Shown in pieces: positions 49,337 through 51,772 of a stretch of DNA of 64,000 bases. The DNA lies in contig CAZBME010000006.1 of NCBI GenBank assembly GCA_964492965.1, forward strand, positions 5,672-69,671, written 5' to 3'. The position numbers and the translations under genes are program-made. The notes beneath the pieces were generated by a model. It was not told the DNA's origin. It did not search any database and was given only the letters and a program-made list of their open reading frames with translations. This stretch comes from an uncultured Syntrophaceae bacterium. Its GTDB lineage: Bacteria; Desulfobacterota; Syntrophia; Syntrophales; UBA8958. Each line of letters starts with the position of its first letter. Positions within the stretch are counted from its first letter, which is position 1.

Positions 49337-50692
49337 TTATACGACGCCGTAAGCCAGCATGGCGTTTGCGACTTTGGTGAAGCCGGCGATGTTGGCGCCC
49401 GTGACGTAATCGCCTTTCTTCCCGTAGGATTCGGCTGTCTCGACGCAGGCCTTGTGGATGCTCTTCATGATGATGAGAAGCCTGTTGTCCACTTCTTCCC
49501 GGGTCCAGGAGAGTTTCAGGCTGTTCTGGCTCATTTCCAGGCCGGAGGTGGCGACGCCACCCGCGTTTGCGGCCTTGCCGGGACCATACAGGACGTTGTT
49601 TTCCTGGAAGATCTTCACGGCATCCGGCGTGGAAGGCATGTTGGCGCCTTCGGCGACACAGATGCAGCCGTTCTTCACTAACGCGGCGGCATGGGTGGCA
49701 TCCAGTTCATTCTGGGTGGCGCAGGGCAAGGCGACATCCACTTTGATCCCCTGATCGCGGATGACGTCCCATACGCTGGAACCTTCGACGCAGAGAGTCT
49801 TGTATTTATCGGCGTATTCCTTGATCCGGCCCCTTTTGACGTTCTTGAGTTCCATGACGTAATCGCACTTCTTGGCGTCAATGCCCTGCTCATCGATAAT
49901 GGTTGCTGCGGAATCGCACAGGGAGATGACCTTGCCGCCCAACTGGTTCACTTTTTCCACGGCATACTGGGCTACATTGCCCGCGCCGCTGATGGCGACG
50001 GTCTTGCCCTTGAAATCGAGGCCGCGCGTGGCGAGCATTTCGGCGGCGAAATAGACACAACCGTAACCGGTCGCTTCAGGACGGACGAGACTGCCGCCGT
50101 AATCCAGGCCCTTGCCGGTCAGAACACCTGTGTGCTCATTGCATATTTTCTTGTAGTAACCGAACATGTAACCGATTTCCCGGCCGCCGACGCCGATATC
50201 TCCCGCCGGCACGTCCGTTTCCGGTCCCACGTGGCGGTAGAGCTCCCGCATGAAGGCCTGGCAGAAACGCATGACTTCGCCGTCCGATTTTCCCTTGGGA
50301 TCGAAATCGGTGCCGCCCTTGCCGCCGCCCATGGGGAGCGTGGTCAGGGAGTTCTTGAAGATCTGCTCGAAACCGAGGAATTTGATAATGCCCAGGTTGA
50401 CGGAAGGATGGAAACGAAGGCCGCCCTTGAAAGGACCGATGGCGTTGTTGAACTGGACACGGAATCCCCGGTTGACCTGCACGTTGCCTTTGTCGTCCAC
50501 CCAGGGAACGCGGAACATGATCGTCCTTTCAGGCTCCACGATCCGTTCGTAAATGTTGGCCTTCACGAACTCCGGATGCCTCTTGGTGGTCGGCTCCAGG
50601 GTTTCCATGACCTCTTCTACGGCCTGATGAAACTCAGGCTGGTCCGGATCGATTTGTTTCACTTTTGCTAGAACATCTTTAATAACGGACAT
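49337..50692 (-). CDS. gdhA: NADP-specific glutamate dehydrogenase
   Basis: 451 aa with [40 protein letters not shown]...[15 protein letters not shown]. Confidence 0.95.
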
Positions 50693-50740
50693 GTTGATAC
50701 CCCCTTCAAAAATTGGTTTTTATTCTTACATGTAGTTTAT

Positions 50741-51772
50741 TCATACATGGGCAGAACTGAATTGGTCCAATACCAGATCGAACGGTAAAAGGTTGCCGTA
50801 TTCCATGACCGACGACATCCCCCGATTATCCACATCCATGCCCAGTTCCTGAACATAGGCGGAAGGATTGAGGCCGCCGATGAGGATAATGCCGATTTTA
50901 TTGATATCCACAGGAAACTGGCAGACGGGCTCGCTGATCTCGCCTGTCTTGAGGACGCCGTTAATGCCTGCCGCCTGCAGTTTTTCCAGTAGGGCTCTCG
51001 TCAGGGGATAGCAGGGCGCAGGGATTTCGCGGAAATTGGCCAGAATCATGCCTTCACCGCTTTCCACGGCCTGGCCGACAGAGGTCATCTTGCCCCGGAT
51101 GAAGATCTCCGAGGGATCAAGGGATGAACCGGAATAATAAATGAGCTCACCGAACCGCAAGGCTTGCCGGTGTTTTACCTGCAGAATGCCTCCGAACTTG
51201 GAATCCATAGGAATGCCGTTTTTCAGGAGAACGCCGTTGACGACAATGCTGCAGATCGTCGCCAATCCCATCTTGCCTTCGGGTACGATAATGGATCCCA
51301 GGCGCTCGCCTTCTCCGGCCACGGCCACAAGGTTGCTTACGGCAAATCCGGCATTAAAAACGGGCCGCATGAACTTCAGAACGGCGGGGAATGTGGCCTT
51401 GCGGAAAAAGGAGAGGTTCACCGGCACGAGTCCCTGCCGTGTTTCAGGGTTGAACGTTGTTTGGTAAGCCAGAACCTCAATGCGTGAGATGGCCAGGCCC
51501 ACCTTGTCCCGGACCCGGGCCTTGCTTAGTTCATCAAGGCCCCTGTCCGTAATGACTCGCCCGTCCTTCTGGCCGATCAACCTTGTCAGTCCCCGTTCGT
51601 CCATCAGTTTCAAGTGATAACGAATGGCCCTTTCGCTCGGCATGACGCCCATCTCCTGCATGCGGCGGGCGATAAGTCGCGACCCGATGGGTCCCTGCAC
51701 CTCGGAAAGGGCGCGCAAAATCATGAGGGTTTTGCGTTCGATATCTTCGTGATTGGTAAAAACTGAAACCAT
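50741..51772 (-). CDS. nrpR: NrpR-family nitrogen repressor homologue (winged HTH plus one NrpR/DUF128 regulatory domain)
   Basis: Part of track ORF 50741..51778. I prefer ATG 51772 (RBS AAAGGATGG). The N-terminus ILRALSEVQGPIGSRLIARRMQEMGVMPSERAIRYHLKLMDERGLTRLIGQKDGRVITDRG resembles the methanogen NrpR wHTH (ERAxRYHLKxxDExGLT) as I remember it. The roughly 340-aa size fits the HTH plus single-domain type. Confidence 0.7.
   Translation of the reverse strand: MVSVFTNHEDIERKTLMILRALSEVQGPIGSRLIARRMQEMGVMPSERAIRYHLKLMDERGLTRLIGQKDGRVITDRGLDELSKARVRDKVGLAISRIEVLAYQTTFNPETRQGLVPVNLSFFRKATFPAVLKFMRPVFNAGFAVSNLVAVAGEGERLGSIIVPEGKMGLATICSIVVNGVLLKNGIPMDSKFGGILQVKHRQALRFGELIYYSGSSLDPSEIFIRGKMTSVGQAVESGEGMILANFREIPAPCYPLTRALLEKLQAAGINGVLKTGEISEPVCQFPVDINKIGIILIGGLNPSAYVQELGMDVDNRGMSSVMEYGNLLPFDLVLDQFSSAHV

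Follow-up and report, generated by a model that had tools for sequence, protein, structure and literature searches.

The DNA analysed here is a 64-kb stretch (the window) from an uncultured Syntrophaceae bacterium; its minus strand carries a gene for a homologue of NrpR, the textbook nitrogen repressor of methanogens, with the glutamate dehydrogenase (GDH) gene gdhA directly 3' of it (Table 1). The nrpR open reading frame (ORF) begins at ATG, with an alternative in-frame TTG at 51778, and its translation includes SERAIRYHLKLMDERGLTRLIGQKDGRVITDRG, the peptide that an earlier note on this DNA had quoted as a helix-turn-helix of methanogen NrpR type. Membership of the NrpR family (COG1693/PF01995) is near certain: the hidden Markov model search proposed in that note was run, and it assigned residues 17-82 to HTH_12 (Pfam, E = 4e-18) and residues 91-328 to one NrpR regulatory domain (NRD), NRD1_2 (PF01995), with E = 2.1e-80 and 269.8 bits (cutoff 25), the match extending over positions 1-236 of the 238 in the profile; both the identity and the single NRD claimed in the note were therefore borne out.

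Table 1. Features at nrpR-gdhA and elsewhere in the window (window positions; strand where given)
Feature	Position	Strand	Description
nrpR	50741..51772	-	343 aa; winged helix and single NRD, NrpRI-type architecture
-35 hexamer of the nrpR-gdhA promoter	51822..51827	-	TTGACA; read from sequence
-10 hexamer	51799..51804	-	TAAATC, 17 nt 3' of the -35; predicted by consensus from the upstream alignment
Candidate NrpR operator	51773..51798	-	CGGCAA (51790-51795), AGGA, TGGCCT (51780-51785), A, TTGCCG (51773-51778)
nrpR-gdhA junction	50693..50740	-	48 nt; nrpR stop 50741-50743, gdhA ATG 50692-50690
gdhA	49337..50692	-	NADP-specific glutamate dehydrogenase, 451 aa
Terminator-like hairpin	49270..49323	-	19-bp outer stem, between the convergent gdhA and PPDK_N genes; predicted to close the nrpR-gdhA unit
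Second operator-like palindrome	50780..50801	-	ACGGCAA-CCTT-TTACCGT; 3' end of nrpR, ~95 nt 5' of the gdhA ATG
Split archaeal-type glutamate synthase genes, two sets	21666-27210, 39460-44545	-	
Type III glutamine synthetase	37220-39529		
carB paralogues	31081-34302, 59522-62749		
GAF/sigma-54 activator	44776..46332		Best NCBIfam match NifA, 482 bits, below the cutoff of 529
PPDK_N-domain protein	46583-49186	+	867 aa
Four-PAS hybrid histidine kinase	52062-54848		Divergent from nrpR

Regarding its structure, the sole solved relative found by sequence is the NrpR-like domain of MJ0159 (PDB 3NEK), matched over residues 84-330 with E = 1e-20 and ~24% identity; an AlphaFold2 model of the window protein, built from 38 homologues with a mean pLDDT of 85, was superposed by Foldseek on 3NEK with a TM score of 0.90 and a root-mean-square deviation of 2.0 Å. 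The two proteins have the NRD motifs KFGGIL/KYGGIL and GSSLDPxE(I/V)F in common, and the crystallised chain of MJ0159, of 238 residues, is without a counterpart of the winged helix, which in the model spans residues 8-74, with three helices and a wing of two strands. The bacterial proteins and the two-NRD NrpR of Methanobrevibacter have the same recognition helix, (S/G)ERAVRYH(L/M), and the same wing, GRxIT, with 47Glu, 48Arg, 51Arg, 52Tyr, 53His, 71Gly, 72Arg, 74Ile and 75Thr unchanged across them, so that the resemblance to the methanogen helix-turn-helix described in the note stands.

The protein is archaeal in type, yet its bacterial homologues are many. A protein database holds 5037 relatives at E ≤ 1e-10, of which the best 120 are 59-100% identical to the window NrpR and, where a source is named, come from Syntrophales, Syntrophobacterales or 'Deltaproteobacteria' metagenome-assembled genomes. 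In a collection of species-representative genomes, relatives are encoded in at least 569 stretches; the 80 best matches are without exception bacterial and belong to Syntrophus, Smithella and Syntrophaceae, with a few labelled Dehalococcoidales or Bacteriovoracaceae. When clustered at 50%, the family forms 676 clusters among 1.84 billion representatives, with all the Syntrophales-type proteins in one of them; the next cluster, at 48% identity, is part of a Dehalococcoidia/Chloroflexi clade that is itself large (3859 proteins), and a two-NRD representative of 581 residues, 34% identical, is that of Methanobrevibacter. With relatives in at least 569 genomes and thousands of bacterial metagenomic proteins from two phyla, the earlier statement that bacterial homologues are few does not hold; rather, NrpR proves to be a regular component of Syntrophales and Dehalococcoidia, two groups of anaerobes with a key place in methanogenic and dehalogenating communities. 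The family assignment itself is not new, as automated annotation already names bacterial proteins NrpR, and several Syntrophales homologues are labelled 'NrpRI' by JGI. Lie et al. reportedly noted bacterial homologues in 2007; among the papers searched here, none was found to treat NrpR in bacteria. Also in 2007, NrpR was among the proteins counted as specific to methanogens and Archaeoglobus (PMC1852104).

As for the gene that follows, GdhA matches NF006929 (NADP-specific GDH) over its full length, with 759.5 bits against a cutoff of 536, and carries the Pfam domains ELFV_dehydrog_N and ELFV_dehydrog; its orthologues, 84-93% identical, are likewise placed 3' of nrpR in the relatives. The short junction without a terminator, already described in the earlier note, was confirmed: a scan of the gap returned no terminator-like site, its RNA structure was not above that of shuffled controls (z = 0.16), and a Shine-Dalgarno (SD)-like GAAGGGGG at 50700-50707 lies 7 nt 5' of the gdhA ATG. 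The hairpin beyond gdhA folds with -48.8 kcal/mol (z = -5.8; 0 of 200 shuffles as good), and a clear U-tract is absent.

The relatives of nrpR compared here amount to ~85 related loci (labelled L), with ~13-21 kb covered per relative genome; the gene downstream was judged only in loci with at least 600 nt 3' of nrpR, that is, in 71 loci of Syntrophales type. In 70 of these, a gene for a glutamate-forming enzyme comes after nrpR on the same strand, a GDH in 56 and a protein of the glutamate synthase family in 14; more precisely, it is the 451-residue GdhA in 40 loci, a 415-residue GDH-family protein in 16 and a ~529-residue Glu_synthase-family (PF01645) protein in 14 (as the second gene in one of them), and a different gene in the last locus. 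Five of the Glu_synthase-type loci have a divergent GDH-like gene upstream. Hence, nrpR is persistently coupled to an enzyme converting 2-oxoglutarate (2-OG) into glutamate, whichever its type. Between nrpR and the GDH gene there are 2 to 266 nt, in most cases fewer than 110; several gaps measure just 7-21 nt, leaving no space for a promoter. This kept gene order is the strongest evidence both for co-transcription and for a functional link; it gives strong backing to the co-transcription suggested in the note, and nrpR and gdhA most likely form one transcription unit. In L087, which is 84% identical, the order continues from nrpR-gdhA to the PPDK_N gene, the GAF/sigma-54 activator and glutamate synthase (GOGAT).

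Some spacers between nrpR and gdhA have features of their own. In L011 (7015-7283), the 266-nt spacer is swollen by tandem GC-rich repeats (…CTCAATTTCCCCGCCCCTGG(C/G)GAGAGGG…). The Smithella-like loci L053, L058, L073, L074, L077 and L079 have a common element, CATGT(N8-20)CATGAA(A)C, some copies of which can form a small hairpin, e.g., CATGTATGTCGATTACATG, and which might be a processing or attenuation site; just TACATGTA of this element is present in the window, at 50725-50735.

Upstream of nrpR, the alignment of 300 nt from the related loci revealed a near-constant arrangement: TTGACA, 17 nt, a -10 box of the TAGnnn type (the form found in most relatives) and, directly after it, CGGCAA-N4-T(T/G/A)(G/A)CCG. 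The TTGACA box with its 17-nt spacer is kept in most of 80 related loci and in the Dehalococcoidia loci L084, L089 and L090. The family consensus of the candidate operator is GGYAA-N4-TTRCC, its palindrome CGGCAA-N4-TTGCCG, and most Syntrophaceae-like loci have an extra TTGCC repeat 7 bp beyond it. In the window, the candidate operator ends at the ATG of nrpR and, judging from the predicted -10 box, it probably overlaps the transcription start; in L053, L061, L066 and L074, where the 5' untranslated region (UTR) is longer, the palindrome keeps to the -10 box and not to the start codon. A position weight matrix (PWM) scored on 81 loci places the palindrome 5' of nrpR, right after the -10 box, in 76 of them; elsewhere in the ~800 kb of flanks scanned, it found three weak matches only, and among the compared loci, GGYAA-N4 palindromes that are perfect over arms of 6 nt or more are confined to nrpR promoters. 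Scans of the window with the PWM and with the core identified the nrpR promoter as the only intergenic palindrome site; GGCAA-N4-TTGCC as such is not enriched in the window (6 matches vs 3.4 expected). Of the promoter regions proposed in the note for binding studies, 51773-52154 carries the palindrome, and 29102-29659, 44546-44775 and 46333-46582 carry none.

The operator consensus of archaeal NrpR is GGAAN6TTCC (PMC2723118). The canonical GGAA-N6-TTCC was rejected as the operator in the window because its 4 matches (2.2 expected) are at chance level and all lie within ORFs, in one case just 12 nt into the ORF that starts at 17743; the note had likewise found none between genes and had concluded that any operator must differ, in agreement with the candidate GGYAA-N4-TTRCC now identified after the -10 box. 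This motif spans 14 bp like the archaeal one and agrees with it in the outer GG/CC, in A at position 4 and in T at position 11; a similar half-site would be expected, since the ERAVRYH helix and the GRxIT wing are invariant between the bacteria and Methanobrevibacter.

The second operator-like palindrome of Table 1 was considered as an internal gdhA operator and set aside as probably due to chance: it is the second-best PWM match in the window, it has the same core score as a site in an unrelated gene at 30523, and it is missing in L087 and in all other loci. A metagenome-wide scan with ATCGGCAANNNNTTGCCGAT for more regulon members was equally unproductive, 76 of the 80 returned loci being chance matches and 4 being nrpR promoters. 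Three further observations concern the sequences upstream of nrpR. In L145 (7120-7425 and 7780-7870), from a distant lineage (NrpR 37% identical, gdh divergent), the ~950-nt gdh-nrpR spacer holds a long inverted repeat resembling a miniature inverted-repeat transposable element, and the exact ATCGGCAATACATTGCCGAT lies at the centre of the inverted repeat, for which reason it was not taken as an operator; nearer to nrpR, CGGCAA/TTGCCG half-sites occur at other spacings, e.g., CCGGCAATATTGCCGTATAAT. In L006, L011 and L012, the A/T-rich ACATTTTTGTATTGACA, -35 box included, is tandemly duplicated 5' of nrpR. In the window, a perfect 11-bp inverted repeat, TGGACCATTTT-N23-AAAATGGTCCA, is located at 51865-51909, ~40 nt 5' of the nrpR -35 box; L087 has an imperfect counterpart (TGCACCATTTT ... 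AAAATGCTCCA) with conserved flanks, and the repeat may serve a second regulator or belong to the divergent gene's promoter.

Dehalococcoidia (Chloroflexota), of which five loci were taken in, provided an independent test. Their single-NRD NrpR is the closest clade outside Syntrophales (46-55% identity), with the same architecture and operator layout; unlike the window, the partner is a split glutamate synthase, nrpR is internal or last in a longer operon, and there are often two nrpR paralogues around amtB-glnB-glnA and an OmpR/GlnR-like regulator. In the five loci, nrpR is found in clusters with split GOGAT, the OmpR/GlnR-like regulator, asnB, amtB, glnB and glnA, with a second nrpR in two of them (L088 and L089). 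Three of the five have the promoter/operator layout of Syntrophales type before an operon with a Glu_synthase gene and/or nrpR; the site, GG(T/A)AA-N4-TT(A/G)CC, occurs 0-7 nt past the -10 box (L084, TTGACA-17-TACTGT-AGGTAAACGGTTACCT; L090, TTGACA-17-TAGAGT-CGGTAAATGGTTGCCG; L089, TTGACA-17-TATTAT-N7-ACGGAAAGCGGTTGCCGT). Chance alone would give the pattern, with at most one mismatch tolerated, about once per 10 kb; three sites in five loci, each within ~20 nt of a -10 box, are thus very unlikely to be accidental (an estimated ~1e-7). The paralogues of L088 (10001-10999 and 16358-17392) and of L089 (10001-11089 and 17738-18733) flank the OmpR/GlnR-like regulator, (asnB,) amtB, glnB and glnA; 5' of amtB, L081 and L088 have direct repeats of the type GTAAC-n6-GTAAT in place of the NrpR palindrome.

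The reading that we favour, with moderate confidence, is that NrpR represses its own nrpR-gdhA operon via the palindrome and that a rise of 2-OG releases it, which would make the operon an autoregulated unit. The unit, of sigma-70 type, would run from the promoter at 51799-51827 through nrpR and gdhA to the hairpin at 49270-49323. A dimer of NrpR would bind CGGCAA-N4-T(T/G)GCCG (GGYAA-N4-TTRCC in the family) immediately 3' of the -10 box, covering the transcription start, and would thereby block RNA polymerase and repress both genes; by analogy with methanogen NrpR, more 2-OG would lower its affinity for DNA and GDH would be induced. As GDH uses 2-OG and ammonium without ATP, the result would be a substrate-induced, self-limiting module for glutamate entry, and an enzyme with no ATP cost is sensible for energy-limited syntrophs. 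Family membership, gene order and the conserved palindrome with its place in the promoter are what the sequences show; we infer that the palindrome is bound by NrpR, that binding represses, and that 2-OG is the effector. A palindrome over the predicted transcription start fits repression, the role reported for NrpR at archaeal nif and glnA (PMC9765008), and the release of archaeal NrpR from its operator depends on 2-OG (PMC9765008; PMC4902934; PMC11957540).

It should be noted that several points weigh against this reading. In the window, the N4 partner of the left arm is degenerate (TGGCCT), and CGGCAA pairs perfectly with the third repeat, TTGCCG, 11 nt apart and by the start codon, which makes the binding geometry uncertain. 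The PWM was derived from the same loci as were scored, so that the independent evidence is that of the Dehalococcoidia test and of the site-free flanks. A weak sigma-70-like match within nrpR, at 50895-50924, could drive gdhA separately. According to PMC9765008, archaeal nrpR is not under nitrogen control, and autoregulation would depart from that. Induction of a low-affinity GDH at high 2-OG, classically a signal of nitrogen limitation, is not textbook logic. Finally, the regulon beyond the nrpR operon could include nif, amtB or glnA.

This last point leads to the alternative that NrpR is a global nitrogen repressor of distant targets (amtB-glnK, glnA, nif) and that its own promoter is one member of the regulon, with the linkage to gdhA reflecting co-expression and not its main task; it is compatible with the model above and, as an account of this locus, rather unlikely. 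It would agree with M. maripaludis, where the NrpR operator is found 5' of nif, glnK-amtB, glnA and transporter genes (PMC2723118), and with the location of the Dehalococcoidia nrpR genes within large amtB, glnB and glnA clusters, and the ~13-21 kb covered per genome leave room for it. However, the ~800 kb of flanks are essentially free of further sites, the nitrogen genes of the window (type III glutamine synthetase, GS; the two split GOGAT sets; carAB; the amidotransferases) have no palindrome at their promoters, and the Dehalococcoidia site precedes the Glu_synthase/nrpR operon and not amtB-glnB-glnA.

A different function of the palindrome, either as a hairpin at the 5' end of the mRNA affecting stability or translation or as the site of another regulator, is improbable. 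The palindrome does lie at the predicted mRNA 5' end; in the window and close relatives it abuts the start codon and includes an SD-like AGGA (present in many loci), and outer arm positions sometimes co-vary, e.g., ATCGGCAA/TTGCCGAT vs ATACGGCAA/TTGCCGTAT. However, arm positions 2 and 3 vary one-sidedly, so that among 41 unique sites 9 and 8, respectively, are mismatched vs one compensated change; GGYAA/TTRCC is conserved as a sequence, beyond its pairing, across two phyla; some N4 spacers do not resemble an SD sequence, and the palindrome tracks the -10 box when the UTR is longer. With no Rfam family match, no compensatory pattern in the arms and no structure at the junction, the RNA element was rejected, and as for another regulator, no regulator gene other than nrpR is consistently found with the palindrome. 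Finally, that gdhA merely adjoins nrpR and has its own promoter, with NrpR regulating only itself or nothing local, is very doubtful. The weak sigma-70-like match inside nrpR, the palindrome-like sequence ~95 nt 5' of gdhA and the gaps of 130-266 nt in some relatives speak for it; against it are the gaps of only 2-21 nt in several other relatives, a window junction with neither terminator nor stable structure, a same-strand order that survives a change of enzyme in 70 of 71 loci, and the lack of conservation of the palindrome-like sequence.

Extending the autoregulated operon to both phyla, we tentatively consider it possible, though a little short of probable, that Syntrophales and Dehalococcoidia have a self-regulated module for glutamate entry, in which NrpR, as a 2-OG sensor of archaeal type, would act with bacterial sigma-70 polymerase via a shifted operator, GGYAA-N4-TTRCC, to control specifically the enzyme aminating 2-OG (GDH or GOGAT), and GS and AmtB would be left to classical regulators, namely, the NifA-like sigma-54 activator in Syntrophales and the GlnR-like regulator in Dehalococcoidia.

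Compared with known systems, NrpR of Methanococcus maripaludis has a winged helix and two NRDs, represses nif, glnA and glnK-amtB, and is released by 2-OG. The window protein has the same winged-helix and NRD families, a candidate operator that is likewise a 14-bp palindrome, at the core promoter or just 3' of it, and a nitrogen context; it differs in having one NRD and not two, a sigma-70-type promoter in place of TATA/BRE (B recognition element), a predicted operator GGYAA-N4-TTRCC vs GGAAN6TTCC, and its own operon with gdhA as the predicted target. Identity with the two-NRD archaeal proteins is ~34%, and the helix and wing are near-identical to those of Methanobrevibacter. The combination of a winged helix with a single NRD is that of NrpRI (NrpR1) of Methanosarcina mazei and M. 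acetivorans (bioRxiv 10.1101/2020.06.15.153874). Unlike Methanosarcina, where NrpR2 is an NRD-only subunit and the targets are nif and glnA, not gdhA, the 64-kb window has no second NRD gene (NrpRII-like, NRD-only), and tblastn with NrpR returned only nrpR. The cyanobacterial NtcA and the GAF domain of NifA are also 2-OG-responsive nitrogen regulators; they are functional analogues in that they tie the transcription of nitrogen assimilation genes to 2-OG. Their CRP-type and GAF-AAA+ folds are unrelated to NrpR, and both are activators, whereas the window NrpR is predicted to be a repressor; an activator of the NifA type is present here, 3 kb away.

What this analysis adds is the conserved link of nrpR to a glutamate-forming enzyme, an operator predicted across two phyla, and the apparent autoregulation, which is unlike archaeal reports (PMC9765008). 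If the autoregulated operon is confirmed, it would give a handle on how energy-starved syntrophs choose between ATP-free GDH and ATP-costly GS-GOGAT for ammonium assimilation, and a compact 2-OG-responsive repressor/operator pair already suited to bacterial RNA polymerase. The module common to the two phyla, if real, would be the first defined NrpR regulon and operator outside Archaea, and would fit gene exchange, in either direction, of methanogens with the bacteria living alongside them.

Regarding the neighbourhood, the window is a nitrogen-assimilation supercluster, largely on the minus strand; carA, guaA and two class-II amidotransferases complete the genes listed in Table 1. The GAF/sigma-54 activator described in the earlier note is real, and several relatives keep nrpR and this NifA-like activator gene in synteny as neighbours; the hybrid archaeal/bacterial circuit that it suggested finds no support, since the PWM and core scans returned no NrpR-type palindrome at the activator, GOGAT or GS promoters of the window, and NrpR and the NifA-like activator look like separate neighbouring modules. 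A link of nrpR to the PAS histidine kinase was rejected as well, because this neighbour is not conserved in L087 or in other loci.

The split GOGAT-like sets (21666-29101 and 39460-44545, minus strand) comprise GXGXG, Glu_synthase, Fe-S and pyridine-nucleotide oxidoreductase parts, and one of them is preceded by an FAD-oxidase/Fe-S protein; the 371-residue ORF at 43430-44545 has no Pfam or NCBIfam match and overlaps the Glu_synthase gene by 22 nt. Elements resembling the -24/-12 sites of sigma-54 occur on the minus strand at 29197-29211 (TGGCATTTATCTTGC) and 44614-44628 (TGGCATCATTTTCGC); both are intergenic, within two of the promoter regions proposed in the note (29102-29659 and 44546-44775) and 5' of the two split-GOGAT-like operons, and they are plausible by position and fit control by the adjacent NifA-like activator. 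Over the whole window, the sigma-54 consensus shows no enrichment (56 matches vs 65 expected).

The 867-residue protein has PPDK_N (ATP-grasp-like) as its only domain, its N-terminal 300 residues being without assignment; in Syntrophales loci, its gene repeatedly occupies the place between gdhA and the activator gene, and the product could be a nitrogen-related kinase or modifier. Another ORF of the minus strand, of 949 residues (54856-57705), fuses AFOR_N and AFOR_C (aldehyde:ferredoxin oxidoreductase) to Fe-ADH and ADH_Fe_C, both parts being complete; it is an unusual single-chain acid-to-alcohol (or reverse) module, with a 73%-identical match in L032. Finally, a 2-oxoacid:ferredoxin oxidoreductase of three genes (POR_N, TPP_enzyme_C and POR gamma) is encoded at 2268-8285 on the minus strand and adjoins a 1123-residue GltD-like Fe-S flavoprotein; this set could form or consume 2-OG near the 2-OG-related regulators.

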